In this document: positions 11,847 through 20,245 of the stretch, in pieces
Layout: the number at the start of each line of letters is the position of its first letter
Numbering within the stretch: the stretch's first letter is position 1
Source: an uncultured Alphaproteobacteria bacterium
Lineage (GTDB): Bacteria; Pseudomonadota; Alphaproteobacteria; Rhizobiales; Aestuariivirgaceae
Direction: 5' to 3'
NCBI GenBank assembly: GCA_963846785.1
Contig: CAWJXD010000014.1
Location: 16,600-80,599 of the forward strand
DNA: 64,000 nt
Notes under the pieces: generated by a model
What the model was told of the DNA's origin: nothing
Seen by the model: only the letters and a program-made list of their open reading frames with translations
The model's database searches: none
Translations under genes and position numbers: made by a program

Positions 11847-12737
11847 TTTCGAAGAAGAACTCCTTTTCTGGAGATGCTGTGTTCGCGCCATGAAATGTAA
11901 ATAGCGCTTGCAATCAGGATGCTGACACCAAGGAATGTCCAGCTATCCGGAAAGTCGCCAAAGAAATACCAGCCCGCGATGACGGCCATAATCATCTCTG
12001 CATAACCAATGGGCGCCAGCAAAGAGGCCTCGGCATACTGCATGGCTTTGACGGACAGGAAATTGCCAAGCGTCCCGATTGCTGCAAGCAAAACGAACAT
12101 TTGCACGTGGTGCCAACTTGGCGTCTGCCAAAATGAAACCACGGCAATACTGGCGACTGCAGCACCAAACAGGCTTGTGTAGAATGTGTTCGCCATGGCT
12201 CCGCCTTTTCCTGCCAGTTTGCGCGTCAGCAGCAGCGCCAATGCCAGAGGTAACACCTGCGCCAAAAGCAAGGAACATGCCGGGGTTCAGCGCCTGTATG
12301 CCGGGGCGAATGATAATCAGTACACCAACAAACCCCACAGCAACCGCAATCCAGCGACGCAACCCCACGTGCTCACGCAAAAACATGGGTGCAAGGGCCG
12401 TAACACAGAGCGGTTGAATGAAGTAAATGGCAAGTGTTTCTGCAATACCCTGATACCTGAGGGCACCAAAGAACATGAGGGTGCTGACCACAATCAGCGT
12501 ACCCCTGCACACATTGAGAGCGCTTTCAGAGGGAACGAGAGCCGCCATGCCATTTTGCCAAACAAGGATCGGCGCCGTGAGCAGCATGCCGAAAAACAGC
12601 CGTGCCCAAACAATCTCGATCACTGGCACACCTTGTTGTCCAAGAAACTTGGCCACGACATCGAGAAATGGAAAAATAATCATCGCTGCAAGCATCAAGG
12701 CGATGCCAAGCAACGGTCGATGAACGTGTCGTGTCAT
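11843..12737 (-). CDS. DMT/EamA family transporter; one +1 frameshift near 12245
   Basis: EamA pattern split between ORF 11943-12737 (N-half, GLRRWIAVAVGFVGVLIIIRPG) and ORF 11843-12271 (C-half, AEASLLAPIGYAEMI); removing one base gives 297 aa. Confidence 0.82.
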
Positions 12738-15139
12738 GCTCTGAGGCGCAGATTCTCCGGATCCCAGATCGAGTCTGGAATGATCCGTGCACGGCGCATC
12801 TCACCAAACATCATGATGTCGAGGTCCGTGCCAGTTGCAACGAGTTCTGGTGGCACATAGGCGAAAGCGAGCGACTTCATCACCGCATGACCATAAGCAC
12901 CAGATGTCGTGACGCCGACGACCTTGCCGTTGTGATAGACGGGTTCATTTCCGACACAATCAGAATCCGTGTTATCGACTTCGAGATAGACGAGTTTCAT
13001 CCGTTCTCCGCGCTGCTTTCGCGAAAGTGATGCGGTCTTGCCGATGAAGTCAGATTTATCTTCCCGGATAAAGCGGTTCATCGAGGCTTCGTACATATCG
13101 ATTTCTGCCGTGAGTTCCGAACCCCAACCGCGATAGGATTTCTCCATGCGCAATGAGTTCATCGCATATGTTCCAAAAAGCTGCATGCCATGTCCTCGAC
13201 CTGCCTCACGCAGCGCCTCATACACTTGAGGCAAGTGATTCATCGGACAGTGGATTTCCCAGCCCAGCTCACCCACATAGTTGACGCGCAGCAGCCTTAC
13301 ATCAACGCCAACAATTCTTGCATGTCGTCCGGTAAGCCATTTTCCGAGATCATCTTTGCAAATCGTCGCGAGTACATCGCGCGACTTCGGCCCGGCGAGC
13401 ACCAGCACGCCAAAGTCATCTGTGACATCGGAGATGGAAACGTCTTCGCCATTCTTGCGCCACGCCAATTGATCAAAGTCATGAACCTGCGCCACCGCCG
13501 CCGACAATACATAAAAGTGATCCGCCGCCAACCGCGTGACCGTGATTTCACTTTCGATGAAACCGTTGGCATTCAGCAAGTGGCCAAGAATGATACCGCC
13601 GTCTTTCAGCGGAATCTTGTTGGCGCAAATACCGTCCAGGAAAGCATGGGCATCCTTGCCTTTCACATCAAATTTGGAGAATGTCGAAAGATCCATCAGC
13701 CCGACGCGCTCGCGCACGGCGAGACATTCGGACTTCACCGCTTCCCACCAATTCGACCGTTTGAAAGAATAAACTTCGCCTGTGCCGCTTTTGTCGTACC
13801 AGCGCGCCCGCTCCCATCCGAAGATTTGCGCAAACTGCGCGCCCTCGTTTTTCAGCGTGTCGTACAGCGATGACTTGCGAAGTCCGCGACCAACCTGATG
13901 CTGCTCACCCGGTTTGTAACAGTAATACATGTGGTGATAATCGGCGACGGAAACTTCCGTAGTATAGTTCTTGGTAGCCCACGATCCAAACCGGCGCGGA
14001 TCAAACTCGCGCATGTTGATTTCGGCCTGGCCATGCACCATCCACTGCGCCAGATATTTGCCCGCACCACCACCCTGGCAAATGCCAATCGATGCTCCGC
14101 AATGCATCCAGTAATTCTTGGGACCGTGTGCCGGACCAGAGAGATAAACCCCATCTGGCGTATGCGTGATCGCACCTGAGATGATCGACTTCACACCGGT
14201 CTTTCCAAACAGCGGCAATCGCTCCGCTGCTTTTTCCAGCCACGGCATGATGCGGTCGAGCTCATTGGGTTCGAGTTCGCTTTCGTAATCCCAGCGGGGC
14301 GGTTCGCCATTCCAACACACATGCGCCGTTGCAGTTTCATAAGGACCGACAAGTACGCCGTTGGTTTCCTCGCGCAGGTATGCGTGCGAGTAGGGATCAC
14401 GCACCACCGGCAATTCCATCTTGAGGTCGATCAGTTCCTGCAGCGGTTCAGTGATGATGTATTGATGCAGCATGTTTGTGATAGGCACATTATGTCCGGT
14501 CCATGACCCCACAACATCGCAATAAGAACCAGCGGCATTCACCACATGCTCGCAGTCAATATTTCCATTTTCCGTAAACACGCGCCACTCGCCTTTCGGC
14601 AACAGTTTGATGTCGGTGACGCGCGTGCGCCGATAAATCTCGGCACCCAACTGACGCGCGCCCGCCGCCATGGCGTTGGTGATATCAGCGGGAGCGACGT
14701 GCCCGTCCGTCACCGTGCGAAACGCCGCCTTGATGCCGAAAGTCTCAAGGAACGGATGATACTGCTTGATCTCAGACGGCCCAATGATCTCGCCCTCGTA
14801 ACCTGCCAGTTTCGAAATGCCGTAAACATATTTCAGCCAGTTCACTTCCTCGTCGGTGGTGGCCAGGCGTAATCCGCCGCAGCCATGCCACGATACTGCT
14901 TGACCAGTGAGCTTCTCCAGCTTCGGATAAAGTTCGGTGCCGTAAACATGCACCTTCGTCATGTTGAGCGAGCCGTTGAAATGCGGGCATTGCCCCGCGG
15001 CATGCCATGTGGACCCGGACGTCAGCTCGCCTTTTTCAATCAGAACAATATCCGTCCAGCCTTCAAGTGCGAGGTGGTACAACAACCCCACGCCCATCAC
15101 GCCACCACCAACCACCACAACCCGCGCATGCGATTTCAT
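12734..15139 (-). CDS. GcvT-family FAD-dependent oxidoreductase (dimethylglycine/sarcosine dehydrogenase-like)
   Basis: VVVGGGVMG Rossmann motif, ELTSGSTWHAAG, THTPDG, and a C-terminal GcvT domain (DLSTFSKF, NSLRMEKSYRGW). Confidence 0.92.
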   Translation of the reverse strand: MKSHARVVVVGGGVMGVGLLYHLALEGWTDIVLIEKGELTSGSTWHAAGQCPHFNGSLNMTKVHVYGTELYPKLEKLTGQAVSWHGCGGLRLATTDEEVNWLKYVYGISKLAGYEGEIIGPSEIKQYHPFLETFGIKAAFRTVTDGHVAPADITNAMAAGARQLGAEIYRRTRVTDIKLLPKGEWRVFTENGNIDCEHVVNAAGSYCDVVGSWTGHNVPITNMLHQYIITEPLQELIDLKMELPVVRDPYSHAYLREETNGVLVGPYETATAHVCWNGEPPRWDYESELEPNELDRIMPWLEKAAERLPLFGKTGVKSIISGAITHTPDGVYLSGPAHGPKNYWMHCGASIGICQGGGAGKYLAQWMVHGQAEINMREFDPRRFGSWATKNYTTEVSVADYHHMYYCYKPGEQHQVGRGLRKSSLYDTLKNEGAQFAQIFGWERARWYDKSGTGEVYSFKRSNWWEAVKSECLAVRERVGLMDLSTFSKFDVKGKDAHAFLDGICANKIPLKDGGIILGHLLNANGFIESEITVTRLAADHFYVLSAAVAQVHDFDQLAWRKNGEDVSISDVTDDFGVLVLAGPKSRDVLATICKDDLGKWLTGRHARIVGVDVRLLRVNYVGELGWEIHCPMNHLPQVYEALREAGRGHGMQLFGTYAMNSLRMEKSYRGWGSELTAEIDMYEASMNRFIREDKSDFIGKTASLSRKQRGERMKLVYLEVDNTDSDCVGNEPVYHNGKVVGVTTSGAYGHAVMKSLAFAYVPPELVATGTDLDIMMFGEMRRARIIPDSIWDPENLRLRA

Positions 15140-15262
15140 CAGAAAACTCCAATTGCCCGATGTTTCCAACTGTTCGCGGGCGCTGACAAGGTTCAATCCA
15201 TTGGCGAATGGTGAGCCAGATCAACGATATAAGATAAAAATGCCCAAGAAGGAAAATAATGC

Positions 15263-15291
15263 TTGACACCGCACGGTGGGTGTGCTAGATC
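15263..15291 (+). promoter_or_regulatory. Sigma70-type promoter
   Basis: TTGACA (15263-15268), 17-nt spacer, TAGATC (15286-15291). Confidence 0.65.
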
Positions 15292-15339
15292 TGGATACAG
15301 TCGACAGAGGTGGGCGACCACCCGAACGACTTTCAAAAC

Positions 15340-15456
15340 ATGACGAACACGCTCCGCAGCGCTCCCGGTTGGGACATGGCAGGGGTTTCCAGACGATCAA
15401 ATACCCGGTTCAATCGGCAAATCGACGGCTCCTTCGGCTTCGGCGAGATTGCTTGA
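15340..15456 (+). CDS. Candidate 38-aa small or leader ORF (MTNTLRSAPGWDMAGVSRRSNTRFNRQIDGSFGFGEIA)
   Basis: Open frame just after a GNRA-capped hairpin downstream of the 15263 promoter; no clear RBS. Confidence 0.3.
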   Translation: MTNTLRSAPGWDMAGVSRRSNTRFNRQIDGSFGFGEIA

Positions 15457-15481
15457 TTCCGGCGCATATACAGTGTATATC
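15453..15481 (+). promoter_or_regulatory. TA operon promoter with overlapping palindromic operator
   Basis: TTGATT-N17-TATATC; inverted repeat ATATAC-agt-GTATAT at 15466-15480; ATG at 15488 lies at the expected TSS. Confidence 0.65.
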
Positions 15482-15487
15482 ACTTGC

Positions 15488-15811
15488 ATGACGACCCCTC
15501 GAACCAGTAAATTCAAAAAGCCACCTGCAAAGGATCAAACCTTTGTCGCAACGCAAATGCGTTTTGACCGGGCCGGGCTCTCGAAGATCGACCGTGCCGC
15601 CGAGCTGTCCGGCACCACCCGGTCGGAATTCGTGCGCCGCAGCGCGGTGGTGGAAGCCGAAAAAGTTTTGCTCGACCAAGTCTACTTTGGGGTCGATCGC
15701 GCAACGTTCGATTTCTTCTCCGATGTTGCGTCCAAACCGCTATCCGGCGAAGCCTTTGAACGACTGATGCGCGTCAAGTCCCCCTGGGACAAAACCGCAA
15801 TCGGGAAATGA
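15488..15811 (+). CDS. DUF1778 ribbon-helix-helix antitoxin (TacA/AtaR-like)
   Basis: MRFDRAGLSKIDRAAELSGTTRSEFVRRSAVVEAEKVLLDQ; ATGA overlap with the GNAT gene. Confidence 0.9.
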   Translation: MTTPRTSKFKKPPAKDQTFVATQMRFDRAGLSKIDRAAELSGTTRSEFVRRSAVVEAEKVLLDQVYFGVDRATFDFFSDVASKPLSGEAFERLMRVKSPWDKTAIGK

Positions 15812-16281
15812 AACCGCCGGAGCCATTGGCACTCCACCATGGCCTCGACAGTTTTGAAAGCGCGCGCCCCGTACTCAACATCTGGCTGAAAACCCGCGCA
15901 CGTATCAACGAAACTTACGGCGCATCGCGGACGTTCGTCGTATGTGCAGAGAAGGGCCATGATGTGATTGGCTACTACTGCCTGTCACAGGGTGCCATCG
16001 GCCACGAACAAGTCTCATCCAAGTTCCGCCGCAACATGCCCGATCCCATTCCGGTGACTCTGCTCGGGCGGTTGGCAGTGGACCAGCGCTTTGCCGGAAA
16101 GGGCCTCGGTGCCGCCCTCCTGAAAGACGCCGTTCTGCGCGCCAAACACGCCGCCACCATTGTGGCCTCACGCGGCATGATTGTGCATGCGCTGGATGAC
16201 GAGGCGGCTACCTTCTATGCACGGTACGGGTTTGTGGGAGCGCCAAAGATGCCGCTGTTGATGGTGTTGGGGTTTGGGTGA
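15808..16281 (+). CDS. GNAT acetyltransferase toxin (TacT/AtaT-like)
   Basis: LNIWLK, IGYYCL, NMPDPIPVTLLGRLAVD and acetyl-CoA loop AGKGLGAALLKDA; directly downstream of DUF1778. Confidence 0.92.
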   Translation: MKPPEPLALHHGLDSFESARPVLNIWLKTRARINETYGASRTFVVCAEKGHDVIGYYCLSQGAIGHEQVSSKFRRNMPDPIPVTLLGRLAVDQRFAGKGLGAALLKDAVLRAKHAATIVASRGMIVHALDDEAATFYARYGFVGAPKMPLLMVLGFG

Positions 16282-16324
16282 AGCTGCTTACAACTGACTT
16301 CGTAAAAGACAGATGGTGCAAGTC

Positions 16325-16972
16325 TCACTCTGCCGCAATCCTAAGTGCCGCAGAATTATGAGCGTAGGTCTTCCATGTCGGTGCATAGTCTTCGTTGGCT
16401 TGGTTGCCCCAGTAGGTCCAACCCGGCCTTGTGCCGCGCGCAAACAATTCGAGAAAAGGTCCGCGTGAGCAGGCCTCGATAAGGCCATATTGTTCGTCAG
16501 GCTTTCTGGAGTGCTCGCGTTTACGTGTCTCCATCATGTTCACTTGGCGGCGGCCGGGGGCCAGTGTTCTTGCACCTTTACCCCGTGTGCCAAAGAGCAG
16601 GACTTCGGTGACGTTGCGGAAATAGAAGCCAACGCCTCTGCCATCGGAGCCACCGTCTTTGCGGATTTTGTGCCAGATGATGTTGCTTTTGTAGTCAAAG
16701 CCCCAGGCTTTCATCACGGCAAGGCCTTCTGGCAGCAAGGCATTGGGCACCCACATGTATAAATGTGCCGGTTCCTTTGCGACATCGGCCACGGGTAGGG
16801 CGCATATGTCAGCCAGCGTCATGGTCTCGTAGCGGTTTAATCGCTTGTGCTCAGGTGCCATCTTGCCTGTGCGATTGGTGAAGCGCCAAGGCGGATCGGC
16901 CATGATGGTTTGGAATTTTCGCCCGCCGAGCGAGGAGGCAAGATCGATGATTGTTTTATTCAGTTGATCCAT
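16325..16972 (-). CDS. MT-A70 family adenine methyltransferase
   Basis: Catalytic ADPPW, HLYMWVPNALL, WGFDYKSNIIWHK, GFYFRNVTE, HSRKPDE and LELFARG motifs. Confidence 0.93.
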   Translation of the reverse strand: MDQLNKTIIDLASSLGGRKFQTIMADPPWRFTNRTGKMAPEHKRLNRYETMTLADICALPVADVAKEPAHLYMWVPNALLPEGLAVMKAWGFDYKSNIIWHKIRKDGGSDGRGVGFYFRNVTEVLLFGTRGKGARTLAPGRRQVNMMETRKREHSRKPDEQYGLIEACSRGPFLELFARGTRPGWTYWGNQANEDYAPTWKTYAHNSAALRIAAE

Positions 16973-17072
16973 CGTTCACATAAGCCTCTTTGCGGATTGC
17001 AATAACGACAACAGGGCAGCCGCCGCCACCGCCGCCCTCCAGTCTTGGAATGAGTTTGTCCAGGTGGGTGGT
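16956..17072 (-). pseudogene. C-terminal remnant of a BglII/BstYI-family type II restriction endonuclease
   Basis: Translates TTHLDKLIPRLEGGGGGGCPVVVIAIRKEAYVNDGSTE*, the characteristic C-terminus of the REases paired with MT-A70 MTases (recalled); overlaps the MTase start by 17 nt; no N-terminal part present. Confidence 0.75.
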
Positions 17073-17081
17073 CAGCCTGAC

Positions 17082-17231
17082 TTACTTGCCCTTGGCGGGC
17101 TTCTCTTGAGCCTTGGCCAAAGCCTTTAGCTTGGCGTCGAAGGCGGATTCGCTGTCATCAGTTTCAAGTTCTTTGGCCATGGCCTTGAATTTGGCGGCTT
17201 GAGGTTGGTTAGTTAAATGATTAGATTTCAT
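17082..17231 (-). CDS. 49-aa small protein of the type seen beside IS1595 transposases
   Basis: MKSNHLTNQPQAAKFKAMAKELETDDSESAFDAKLKALAKAQEKPAKGK with GAGGG RBS; below the ORF-track cutoff. Confidence 0.6.
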   Translation of the reverse strand: MKSNHLTNQPQAAKFKAMAKELETDDSESAFDAKLKALAKAQEKPAKGK

Positions 17232-17250
17232 TTTGACCCTCTAAAGCGAA

Positions 17251-18035
17251 CTAATGAAGAAAAGAGCTTGCCATTTTTTGGCGAACAGCAACACAATCTC
17301 CATCCATTGAGGCAAGGATAATTTCTGAGTTCATAACCCTCGATAAAGTGCGATCTTTTATTTCTTTGGGTTTGGCCTCTTTCAAAACAAGCATCGAACG
17401 AGTTTCGTCTACATGCTGTTCTTTTTGCTCTCTGTAGAACAACAGAGCTTCCAGTGCTTTAAGTTCGGATGTGCCAGCAAAAATAGCAAGCTTTTTACCG
17501 TCTGGATGTTCAACAATAATGTCAACCACGTAGTCATTCATCGACGCTTGCAATGGTTCGTCAATTCTGATTTTTGCCGATCCCGATTGAGCTTCAACCA
17601 ACTTAGCAACGGCTTCCTTTGACGTCCCAAGCGAAGCCAATGTATTGCTAGAAGCGCCTTGATAAACCACCATCCGGGGTTCATCAGGCTTACGAACGTG
17701 ACCGACTTGCTTACAATTTCTTTCATTGGCAAATAATCGGTATGTAGGAGCATCGCGTTTTCGTCAAATTGAGCGCAATGTTGATCAAGCTGACCGTTCA
17801 ATGCTTCAATGCGGCTATCAGTATCGAAATCAACCCCGTTTGATTCCAGATAAGCTAAAGTTTCACCGTCATCCTCTAACCTAAACAGAGCAGGGAAATT
17901 TGGGTTTCGCGTGATGTAGATTGCTATCGGGTCACCAACTTCTTCAAAGAAAGGTGTGAGTAAAACATAACGAATCGGCACTTCGGCAATATAGAGCTTT
18001 GAACAAAAAGCCTCACAGAAATCTTGCTTATTCAT
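17251..18035 (-). pseudogene. DUF1828-domain protein, split or garbled near 17620-17680
   Basis: N-half (LLTPFFEEVGDPIAIYI, FRLEDDGETLAYLESNGVD) in ORF 17538-18035; C-half (DIIVEHPDGKKLAIFAGTSELKALEA) in ORF 17251-17673. Confidence 0.65.
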
Positions 18036-18490
18036 AGCAAGTCACCTTGAGCTTTAAAACGAAATCTTTCTGCAGCTAATGTGAGAGCTGAAGCGGCGCT
18101 CACCGCAAAATGTTGTATACCATGAACGGCAACGGCTTTTGGCCATCGACGCAAATGAGATCGCGCAGCCCTGATGGAACGGCGATGTGGTCATCCAAAG
18201 TAGATGGCAGTGCCAACCTGGTCTGACGCATGAAACTGTATTGACAATGAACGCGCATATCTGAACCATCTTCAATCCCAAGTGTTGCTCTAAAAATCTG
18301 TTTGTTTTCATTCCGAACAATGAGAACTCGACGAACCTGATCTATGCATTGTATCTTGCAAGCGGCAACTTATCGACTGGGCCAAATTTGCAGCTTTTGA
18401 CCTGATGGCGACAAAGGAAACGACTTGGAGCAAAATGGCCGACTAGCCATGTGCCCTCATCAAGCGTGAGCTTGAAACGGCAAAACCTGC
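18032..18490 (-). pseudogene. Multiply frameshifted upstream partner of the DUF1828 gene
   Basis: Pieces in different frames: RRVLIVRNENKQIFRATLGIEDG, CQY(E)FHASD(P)GWHCH, LAAERFRFKAQGDLL*; its stop overlaps the DUF1828 ATG (ATGA). Confidence 0.5.
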
Positions 18491-18499
18491 CAGTGCAAT

Positions 18500-19110
18500 G
18501 CCCACAGATAATCCAAGGCAAACCACCTGCCACGTAGAACAAGATTGCCCACGGAAGCTGTTGAAGCATCCACGTCCGTTCCACAAATCGATAGAAAGGA
18601 TCGTTGGCTGTTGCCGGCTCAATAACAAAGCGGGGCGGATTCTGGAGGTCCACCACACAGTGCATTTGCCACCACGCGTCCACAAAAAATGAGCGGCGGT
18701 GTGCATAGAAGATCATGGCAATCCGTCTGCCGCTGAGCCCAGTCGCGAATGTCATGTGCAGCGATCATGCCGAAGCCGGCCATTCCAACAAGTGTTCCCA
18801 GATAGACAAGAAGGCGTTCAAGCCACTTTGGCGCAGCGAACGAACGATGGATGAGTAGTCGGTGCATTGCAAGGCGCAATAAGGTGGCAAGAAAACATGA
18901 GGTTTATAAGTGATTAAAAGGTGCGGTGCAGTTGATGGGAGGAGATGAACTTTTGCTGCTCCCACAGAGTGACCAGCGCAGATGGTGATAGCCGTGGTTA
19001 CAAGAAACAAGAGGAAAGCATCCAGCTGAAATGTCAGCAGGCGCACCAACAACAGCTATGATTGACATTGTGAGCACCCAAAAGGACTTGGCAGGAACCC
19101 AAAACAAACA
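18500..19110 (-). pseudogene. Fatty-acid (acyl-CoA) desaturase relic
   Basis: Fragments across frames: WVPAKSFW, ITICAGHSVG / MHRLLIHRSF (His box), HDIRDWAQRQ and FVERTWMLQQLPW; 3' half absent; 92-nt insert at 18868-18959. Confidence 0.7.
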
Positions 19111-19131
19111 TGACCGAGAGAAAGCACAACT

Positions 19132-19188
19132 TACATGATTAAAGGCTTTGGCTTCATTGTAAAAATACGGGTGGCTGAGAATAGACAT
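19132..19188 (-). pseudogene. N-terminal stub of an IS1595-family transposase
   Basis: MSILSHPYFYNEAKAFNHV resembles the MSxLSxPxFxxExxAF start of alphaproteobacterial IS1595 transposases; zinc ribbon and DDE domain are missing. Confidence 0.55.
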
Positions 19189-19266
19189 TGCTTAGCTATC
19201 CGAAATCAATCCGATCAGTGGAGATTGTCGGTTTAGGGTAATAGTGTAAGCCAGGTCAGCACAGGA

Positions 19267-19545
19267 TCACCCATCATCCTTGTGCACATGCAGAAACCGC
19301 GCAATCTTCTGTTTCAACTCAAACGACCGCGCCGGATCGCTCACCGAAGCGGCATCGTCAAACAACGCCCGCTGAAGGTCGGTAGGCAGGTCGTTCCACT
19401 GCATCATCACTGCAGCTCCAAGGGCGCGTAACACACGCTCGTCCGTTGCGGAAAACGTTTCGTGCGGATGCGCAGGGGCACCACCTTCGTCATCCCAGCG
19501 CGCCAATGCCTTGGCGAGATCGTTGAGGTTTTTCAGCTTGCTCAT
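19267..19545 (-). CDS. Hypothetical protein (92 aa)
   Basis: Coding-like ORF (ARWDDEGGA, VLRALGAAVMMQWNDLPTDLQRALF), divergent from the RibD-C gene. Confidence 0.65.
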   Translation of the reverse strand: MSKLKNLNDLAKALARWDDEGGAPAHPHETFSATDERVLRALGAAVMMQWNDLPTDLQRALFDDAASVSDPARSFELKQKIARFLHVHKDDG

Positions 19546-19639
19546 GTGACCGAGATTAAACCCGATCCGCGCCGAATGCCAGCACCCGCAGAGCAGTACA
19601 CCGATTGCCAACGACTTAGCATTTGGATACATTTATCAC

Positions 19640-20170
19640 ATGGCAAAACTTGTCTTCGGTATGAACCAGTCCCTCGACGGTTACGTCGATCACACGGGGT
19701 TTCGGCCAAGCCCAACGCTGTTTCGCCACTTCATCGCCGAGGCGCAAACGCAAGCGGGCAGCGTGTACGGTCGCTGCATGTATGAAATCATGCGTTATTG
19801 GGACGACGAGCGTCCTGAATGGGGCGCAGATGAAAAAGCTTTCGCTGTTGCGTGGCGGAACCAGCCGAAATGGGTCGTCTCGCGCACCTTGAAGTCGGTT
19901 GGGCCCAACGCAACGCTTGTTGAAGGCGATATCGAGGGCGCGATCCGCCAGCTGAAGGCTGAGCGCCAAGGGGAAATCGAAGTGGCTGGCCCCGACTTGG
20001 CCCGCAGCTTCACCGAACTTGGCTTGATCGATGAATATCGCATCTACTTGCATCCCGTCGTGCTTGGCCACGGCAAGCCCTATTTTGCCGGCCCCCGACC
20101 GCCGCTCCGCCTTGTGACCCATGATCGGATGGACGGGGATGTGGTCAGGTTGTCATACGTGCCTGCTTGA
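19640..20170 (+). CDS. Dihydrofolate reductase family / RibD C-terminal domain protein
   Basis: MNQSLDGYV, YGRCMYE, KWVVSRTL and GLIDEYRIYLHPVVLGHGKPYF motifs. Confidence 0.9.
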   Translation: MAKLVFGMNQSLDGYVDHTGFRPSPTLFRHFIAEAQTQAGSVYGRCMYEIMRYWDDERPEWGADEKAFAVAWRNQPKWVVSRTLKSVGPNATLVEGDIEGAIRQLKAERQGEIEVAGPDLARSFTELGLIDEYRIYLHPVVLGHGKPYFAGPRPPLRLVTHDRMDGDVVRLSYVPA

Positions 20171-20245
20171 TCGCCCCTCGGGTCAAACGCGAAATACCAA
20201 TCGAAGCCTCTACCCATTTTCACCAAACACGCCGATAATGCGTTA

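Follow-up and report, generated by a model that had tools for sequence, protein, structure and literature searches.

An MT-A70 methylase gene beside the truncated gene of a BglII/BstYI-family restriction endonuclease in an alphaproteobacterial genome

That orphan methylases originate from the decay of restriction–modification (R-M) systems is a long-standing idea. The established solitary DNA adenine methylases with regulatory roles, Dam (alpha class) and CcrM (N6_N4_Mtase type), which can serve as epigenetic writers, are core, vertically inherited, and functionally integrated. Another kind of methylase, of the MT-A70 family, is found in Type IIP R-M cassettes, where it is paired with an endonuclease of the BglII/BstYI family (PF09195); examples are the cassettes of the Comamonas resistens plasmid pZM22-2 and the Roseomonas mucosa plasmid p5. 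This pairing is already known, since the methylases of BglII R-M systems have been placed within the prokaryotic radiation from which the eukaryotic MT-A70 enzymes derive (Iyer et al. 2016; PMC4738411). A study of solitary methyltransferase genes concluded that in situ degradation of R-M systems is a rare source of such genes (Oliveira, Touchon, and Rocha 2014; PMC4176335).

Here, we analyze a stretch of 64,000 nucleotides from an uncultured alphaproteobacterium (hereafter, the window) that carries what is, with high probability, a wrecked type II R-M cassette of two genes in a compact arrangement: the gene for an endonuclease of the BglII/BstYI fold was cut by a deletion or rearrangement, and the MT-A70 methylase gene was left whole. 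The locus resembles the Type IIP cassettes of pZM22-2, p5, and a genome of the same genus (G003) in methylase clade (70–85 per cent amino-acid identity), gene order, strand, and short gene overlap, but differs from them in that about 81 per cent of the endonuclease gene, including the catalytic residues, and its promoter side are missing. It is a clear but ordinary case of R-M disarming, as events of this kind are known and no new mechanism is seen.

The remnant of the endonuclease gene (16956..17073, minus strand) consists of the last 38 codons (TTHL...GSTE) and the stop codon, and was identified using Pfam, tblastn, and alignments of relatives. It lies in a stop-to-stop frame of 41 codons (17081..16959, minus strand; stop codon at 16958–16956) that reads VRL-TTHLDKLIPRLEGGGGGGCPVVVIAIRKEAYVNDGSTE, overlaps the methylase ATG (16972) by 17 nt in a different frame, and is in register with the TAA that terminates a 49-aa ORF ahead of it (17082..17231). 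No ATG, GTG, or TTG start is present in this frame. The stub matches positions 136–163 of the 163 positions of the Pfam Endonuc-BglII model (PF09195; E = 0.0019; 18.4 bits), a score that misses the 26-bit cut-off for whole proteins, since the stub covers just 17 per cent of the domain. Three further comparisons agree with this assignment: tblastn aligns the stub with the C-terminal end of a Dyadobacter plasmid protein annotated as a BglII/BstYI enzyme, its identity to residues 161–198 of the intact G003 enzyme is 84 per cent (E = 1.3e-16), and all 35 of its 35 internal residues recur at the C-terminus of L067, which is the closest of the intact enzymes from metagenomes. Such homology greatly exceeds what chance would give. 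It also aligns with the conserved C-terminal block TT-x3-KL-x2-R-x5-8-CP-(hydrophobic). These matches bear out the sequence-only reading, which had recognized in this exact string the last ~38 codons of a BglII/BstYI-type endonuclease overlapping the methylase start; the homology to restriction enzymes on which that reading depended is present.

Specifically, the stub corresponds to residues 163–199 of the G003 endonuclease, and the catalytic D99, E108, and E110 of that enzyme (D-X8-E-X-E in VDCYKNRVALEVEW) fall in the part that is missing, which comprises ~162 of roughly 200 codons (the first four fifths of the gene). The stub thus does not contain the PD-(D/E)XK catalytic core and, having neither a start codon nor the D...E-X-E residues, is unable to cut DNA. 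It is a gene remnant and not a member enzyme, and the locus does not combine the intact endonuclease and intact methylase of a functional type II R-M system. When the bacterium's own genome (98 per cent complete) was searched with the G003 enzyme, only residues 161–198 were found, and a PF09195 family search of the same genome gave no match. A search of solved structures with the stub returned only poly-glycine noise, and the full G003 endonuclease had no match among PDB sequences at E ≤ 0.01.

The neighboring gene (16325..16972, minus strand) encodes an intact MT-A70-family DNA methyltransferase of 215 aa, as seen in the ORF list and in its match to positions 1–172 of the 172 positions of the Pfam MT-A70 model (PF05063; E = 4.7e-28; 98.7 bits, with a cut-off of 23.9). 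Its best matches among solved structures are ciliate MT-A70 proteins (E = 7.6e-17) and METTL3 (8e-12), and its DPPW motif (residues 26–29) is aligned with the DPPW of the ciliate MT-A70 structure 7f4r. Because DPPW is present, we regard the protein as a putative N6-adenine methylase. NCBIfam models had no matches to the methylase, the endonuclease, or the neighboring genes. The window methylase shares its Pfam family and the DPPW motif with METTL3/METTL14 and with the ciliate MTA1-type DNA 6mA methylases; unlike these eukaryotic enzymes, it is bacterial and single-domain, comes from an R-M cassette, and has no partner subunit, and its substrate is presumably double-stranded DNA with a short specific site. 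Like Dam and CcrM, it appears to be a solitary adenine methylase, but it belongs to a different family, is accessory, and has been orphaned recently. No cognate of the BglII family is encoded within about 10 genes of it, the distance used to define solitary methyltransferases by Oliveira, Touchon, and Rocha (2014; PMC4176335), or elsewhere in the genome. A cognate endonuclease of another, non-homologous kind is conceivable, but the partner of every close relative of this methylase is a BglII-family endonuclease.

In relatives, the cassette is found whole. An intact 199-aa endonuclease in G003 (PF09195; E = 4.9e-45; 153.6 bits) overlaps by 14 nt a methylase that is 85 per cent identical to that of the window. 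The six closest metagenome methylases (96–98 per cent amino-acid identity) all have a PF09195 gene of 200–212 aa upstream, with the same 17-nt overlap as in the window. The closest plasmid homologs (from Comamonas, Roseomonas, Rhizobium, and Xanthomonas; 70–75 per cent identity) all adjoin annotated BglII/BstYI enzymes: on Comamonas pZM22-2 and Roseomonas p5 the endonuclease gene immediately precedes the methylase gene, on the same strand and overlapping it by 4 nt, and in the Rhizobium and Xanthomonas pairs the two genes are convergent. Given these intact pairs, and no other piece of the endonuclease in the genome, the proposal that an R-M system had been disarmed here, with its nuclease lost and its DPPW-containing methylase intact, holds.

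Around these cassettes, toxin–antitoxin-type genes recur (loci L002–L005 and L014–L016, and positions 15449–16281 of the window). The neighbors are tacAT in the window, a DUF4258 pair in G003, and MazF in G001; on plasmids, they are VapC in Rhizobium, RelB/YafQ in Xanthomonas, and MqsA in Comamonas. In G021, another member of the genus, the neighbor is a VapC-like PIN gene with an AbrB-type partner, as read from the ORFs. At the G001 locus (L016, G001:C129; 4942–7124), a methylase with 71 per cent identity has as its neighbors a MazF/PemK toxin gene and a 365-aa protein that has no Pfam or NCBIfam match and could be an unrecognized alternative partner nuclease. At a locus of G018 (L013, G018:C159; 1500–2229), two methylase 3' ends (the last ~38 codons) flank a DUF4258 gene and its 75-aa partner. 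The same pair also follows the methylase in G003; the arrangement may reflect insertion of a cassette into the 3' end of the methylase gene, accompanied by a duplication.

The point at which the window departs from the intact cassettes is sharply defined. In blastn comparisons with seven intact references (L067, L068, L066, L069, L065, L062, and L014), homology ends at 17073 or 17072, and from this breakpoint (17073|17074) it is gapless to just past the methylase stop (16313–16345). Because the gapless match spans only the stub and the methylase, the cassette is a compact two-gene unit that was cut at 17073|17074. The deletion or rearrangement junction (17072..17076, as delimited by the blastn end points) lies in the middle of a 95-kb contig. 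No multi-copy repeat was found at the junction, and the only repeated pieces of the surrounding islet are a 44-nt fragment shared with contig C16 and a REP-like repeat at 15229–15320. Two exact-word scans of metagenome contigs recovered neither the junction nor the spacer between tacT and the methylase, and the pre-deletion allele was not found; the order of events (an IS insertion and then a deletion, or one deletion) is therefore one that we infer.

The truncation is also recent. Across 35 internal codons, the stub and L067 have about 8 synonymous and 0 amino-acid differences, compared to a neutral expectation of about 73 per cent non-synonymous changes in the stub. With only synonymous differences present, nearly all of the divergence must have arisen in a working endonuclease. 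Although they are contiguous, the stub (16959–17075) and the methylase (16325–16972) differ in their synonymous divergence from L067 (dS of 0.34 versus 1.45), a contrast that may be due to a mosaic history or to local constraint. Constraint on the stub at the nucleotide level, for example by an embedded promoter, was considered and is not claimed, as the endonuclease 3' end of intact pairs is only mildly lower (pS of 0.46 versus about 0.6).

In the intact cassette the endonuclease gene lies upstream of the methylase gene, on the same strand and with a 17-nt overlap, and a single deletion or rearrangement most probably took about 162 of the roughly 200 endonuclease codons together with the promoter region of the gene. 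The other end of this deletion lies inside the terminus of an adjoining, decaying cargo element derived from IS1595. Left behind were the last 38 endonuclease codons and the whole methylase gene, the latter as a solitary methylase. The nuclease would have been lost first, because any other order would kill the cell when the R-M pair is addictive; under R-M addiction (post-segregational killing), we know of no other viable order. A nuclease-first loss also fits the three lesions that we see, in the window, in G021, and in G027. The methylase may still be transcribed, either by read-through from the small-ORF operon upstream or from signals inside the stub, and would then still methylate its site, so that the genome would stay resistant to this endonuclease, of which intact copies circulate in the genus.

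It is also conceivable, if somewhat unlikely, that the whole cassette is dead, in which case the methylase would be intact merely through recency and, with its promoter lost, would be silent and bound to decay like its neighbors. Such neutral persistence predicts an intact methylase as well, and since the truncation is recent, the intactness of the gene is no proof of selection on a solitary methylase. The gene nevertheless carries no lesion and no sign of decay, as judged from its ORF and its invariant columns: it retains 102 of the 103 columns that are invariant across 11 endonuclease-paired homologs (the sole change is N133G), which falls inside the leave-one-out range of 0–5 changes for the paired homologs themselves. 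Its dN/dS relative to homologs is 0.018–0.057, and the enzyme is probably still catalytically competent. As for expression, the upstream region of the operon is gone, and loss of the operon promoter could have left the methylase silent. The promoter scan found no sigma-70-like site on the minus strand upstream of the methylase, a pattern that is uninformative for an alphaproteobacterium. On the other hand, the AAAGAGG-N12-ATG context of the methylase start (Shine–Dalgarno-like) is conserved with G003, and no terminator-like site was found between the upstream same-strand ORFs and the methylase, so that read-through into the gene, and hence its transcription, is possible. The surroundings are a graveyard, with a frameshifted DUF1828 gene, a desaturase pseudogene, and an IS relic, and broken methylases do occur in the clade (G151 has an internal TGA stop and no endonuclease; in G085 the gene is split in two). 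However, among 401 genomes of the order, about 11 methylases of this clade are intact and have neither a BglII-family gene nor a trace of one within 3 kb, and solitary copies can therefore persist. For the methylase left by a nuclease-first loss, present-day roles as a solitary epigenetic writer or in protection against related endonucleases, as the sequence-only reading had proposed, are plausible.

The same 401 genomes contain about 33 close methylase homologs, about 19 of which are located, by their coordinates, beside full-length endonucleases; PF09195 matches are present in 27 genomes. Within the genus, the methylase occurs in only 4 of about 30 sampled members, with 3' remnants in a fifth (G018). 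As read from their sequences, G021 and G027 have lost the endonuclease independently. In G021 (L015 = G021:C4, 3300–3560), an internal deletion joined endonuclease codons ~1–36 to the start of the methylase gene across an ATGG microhomology, which places the 5' region of the endonuclease gene immediately ahead of the intact methylase. In G027, a complete genome from another family (L017 = G027:C3, 6653–7455), a convergent BglII-family endonuclease gene reads as two overlapping ORFs, probably owing to a frameshift, and the 272-aa methylase beside it is intact. Partial endonuclease matches in G085, G287, and G258 were rejected as further stubs, as they represent contig ends. Two additional close homologs of the methylase (G365:C3:823754-824356 and G389:C15:237358-237945) lie inside open frames of 575–576 aa that possibly represent a methylase fused to another domain; no BglII-family gene is located near them.

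These losses raise the question of whether retention of the methylase is more than neutral. The 5' deletion in the window, the internal deletion in G021, and the frameshift in G027 of another family, with the methylase intact each time and intact endonucleases still present in the genus, are the grounds for a reading that we consider rather improbable: loss of the nuclease with retention of the methylase would be favored, the orphan being kept as a 'vaccination' against the circulating cassette or as an epigenetic regulator, with the stub serving as its 5' leader or promoter. If 'vaccination' were true, the lineage would exchange DNA with the circulating cassette and resist its post-segregational killing.

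In the window, the place of the 5' part of the endonuclease gene is occupied by a decayed low-GC segment (17076..19255) from an IS1595-type cargo element that is truncated at both ends, as indicated by its composition and by a transposase remnant. GC content drops from about 0.56 to 0.41–0.47 across 17076 to about 19255 in the composition profile, and the genome contains no second copy of the segment. All of its recognizable genes are on the minus strand. The last gene of the element, taken from the ORF list, is the 49-aa charged small ORF (17082..17231), whose relatives are found on two Hyphomicrobiales MAG contigs and, as a 44-nt fragment, in the bacterium's own genome (C16:270195-270238; 91 per cent identical to positions 17086–17129 of the window, with different flanks on both sides); no homologs were found on plasmids. 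It is preceded by a DUF1828-type gene (17251..18035) that is present as two overlapping ORFs (17538..18035 and 17251..17673), probably due to a frameshift, of which only the first matches Pfam DUF1828 (E = 3.7e-13). Next are fragments of an acyl-CoA desaturase pseudogene with broken frames (18340..18880; 67–68 per cent in blastn to annotated acyl-CoA desaturase genes), and then the first 21 codons (MSILSHPYFYNEAKAFNHV...) of an IS1595-family transposase gene (19126..19188). The transposase remnant was identified through tblastn matches to the IS1595 transposase of Sulfitobacter pSD118 and to a Mesorhizobium copy (E = 1.4e-4 within a 2.5-kb region) and through a DNA alignment that extends into the upstream region. 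On C16 (270195-270330; L028, ~1120–1330), the last 15 codons of the 49-aa ORF are followed by the IS1595-type subterminal motif and then by GAAC-N7-GAAC, which resembles an alphaproteobacterial SOS box; this relic is preceded by three AATACGGTGACA direct repeats.

The sequence-only reading had the stub stop abruptly at an IS-like inverted repeat. The abrupt stop is real, and an inverted 10-mer with 9/10 matches is indeed present exactly at both low-GC edges (CCTGACTTAC, 17076–17085, and CCTGGCTTAC, 19246–19255), each copy flanked by TCAG. With the N-terminal remnant of the IS1595 transposase 67 nt inside the right edge, these features could suggest a clean IS1595-type insertion into the endonuclease gene, in which CCTGACTTAC/CCTGGCTTAC would be the inverted repeats, TCAG the target duplication, and the 5' half of the gene would lie beyond the element. 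We consider such an insertion very unlikely. The left 10-mer holds the stop codon of the conserved 49-aa ORF. In 3/3 other places where the end of this ORF is found (the two MAG contigs and C16), the sequence extends for about 40 nt before it reaches the motif GGTTTGTCAAGTAT.TAATCGCC. In Sulfitobacter and Mesorhizobium, the reverse complement of this motif, GGCGATTAT..TTGACAAACC, precedes IS1595 transposase genes by 50–75 nt; the left end of the low-GC segment does not have this subterminal motif. On the right, the DNA from 19256 onward is an unrelated 121-aa ORF instead of the endonuclease, whose 5' part is nowhere in the genome. Because of the stop codon, the continuation in relatives, and the unrelated right flank, the 10-mers are probably not true IS termini, and the edge at which the stub stops is better seen as a deletion junction at the margin of a truncated IS1595-derived relic. 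Additionally, in the Sulfitobacter IS1595 element about 129 nt lie between the start of a candidate terminal arm and the transposase ATG downstream of it, compared to 67 nt here, and the duplication would be 4 nt long, whereas target duplications in the IS1595 family are usually 8 bp. A repeat scan found no longer terminal repeat on the segment, and the segment has no DDE domain (PF12762; the genome's single match is on C13). By these features, positions 17076–19255 are a relic and not a complete insertion sequence, which in this family consists of a PF12762 transposase between terminal repeats with a target duplication. As both the endonuclease gene and the low-GC element are truncated at the junction, the event bears the marks of a deletion or rearrangement and not of a simple insertion.

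An assembly artefact, in which a chimeric join at a repeat made a false truncation, is scarcely credible, as the one candidate repeat (the 44-nt, 91 per cent identical copy of 17086–17129 on C16) is short, imperfect, located 12 nt from the breakpoint, and flanked differently on both sides in C16, the junction is in the interior of a 95-kb contig, and the 98 per cent complete genome holds no other endonuclease fragment. The position of the junction and the lack of another piece likewise speak against a 5' part that is contiguous with the stub in the true assembly, the outcome that the sequence-only reading had itself named as fatal to it.

The R-M wreck is part of an accessory islet of ~5 kb (15197..20245), delimited by comparison with G006 of the same genus. 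The islet is bordered by two divergent core genes, a dimethylglycine-dehydrogenase-like gene (12734..15196, minus strand) and a DnaJ/CbpA-like gene (20246.., plus strand), which are 84 nt apart in G006 versus 5,049 nt in the window; their adjacency in G006 places the wreck in accessory DNA. Besides the wreck, the islet contains the low-GC relic, two further ORFs, and a tacA-tacT pair (15449..16281, plus strand) that encodes an antitoxin and a GNAT toxin (Pfam TacA1, E = 1.7e-10, and GNAT acetyltransferase domains) and is convergent with the methylase gene. Between the start of the dehydrogenase gene and tacA, positions 15229–15320 contain a 60–90-nt intergenic REP- or MITE-like repeat, of which at least 18 further copies (76–94 per cent identity) are found on seven contigs of the same genome.

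The locus is a well-resolved snapshot of R-M decay: from sequence one can tell what the ancestral state was, exactly where the break lies, that the catalytic core is gone, and that the event was recent. It bears on the debate about whether solitary methylases come from in situ degradation or arrive already solitary (Oliveira, Touchon, and Rocha 2014; PMC4176335). The window methylase is like the solitary methyltransferases of that study in being of the R-M type, in having no cognate endonuclease, and in residing in a non-core islet; it differs from the conclusion of the study in that degradation is directly visible as a stub, with other lesions in two relatives. The clade of MT-A70 methylases with BglII-family partners shows both patterns, as three lineages carry nuclease wrecks and about 11 members are apparently solitary without a vestige, the latter fitting the view of that study. 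As for the bacterium itself, its DNA may bear an m6A motif which would be credited, in annotation, to a 'system' that is no longer able to restrict.
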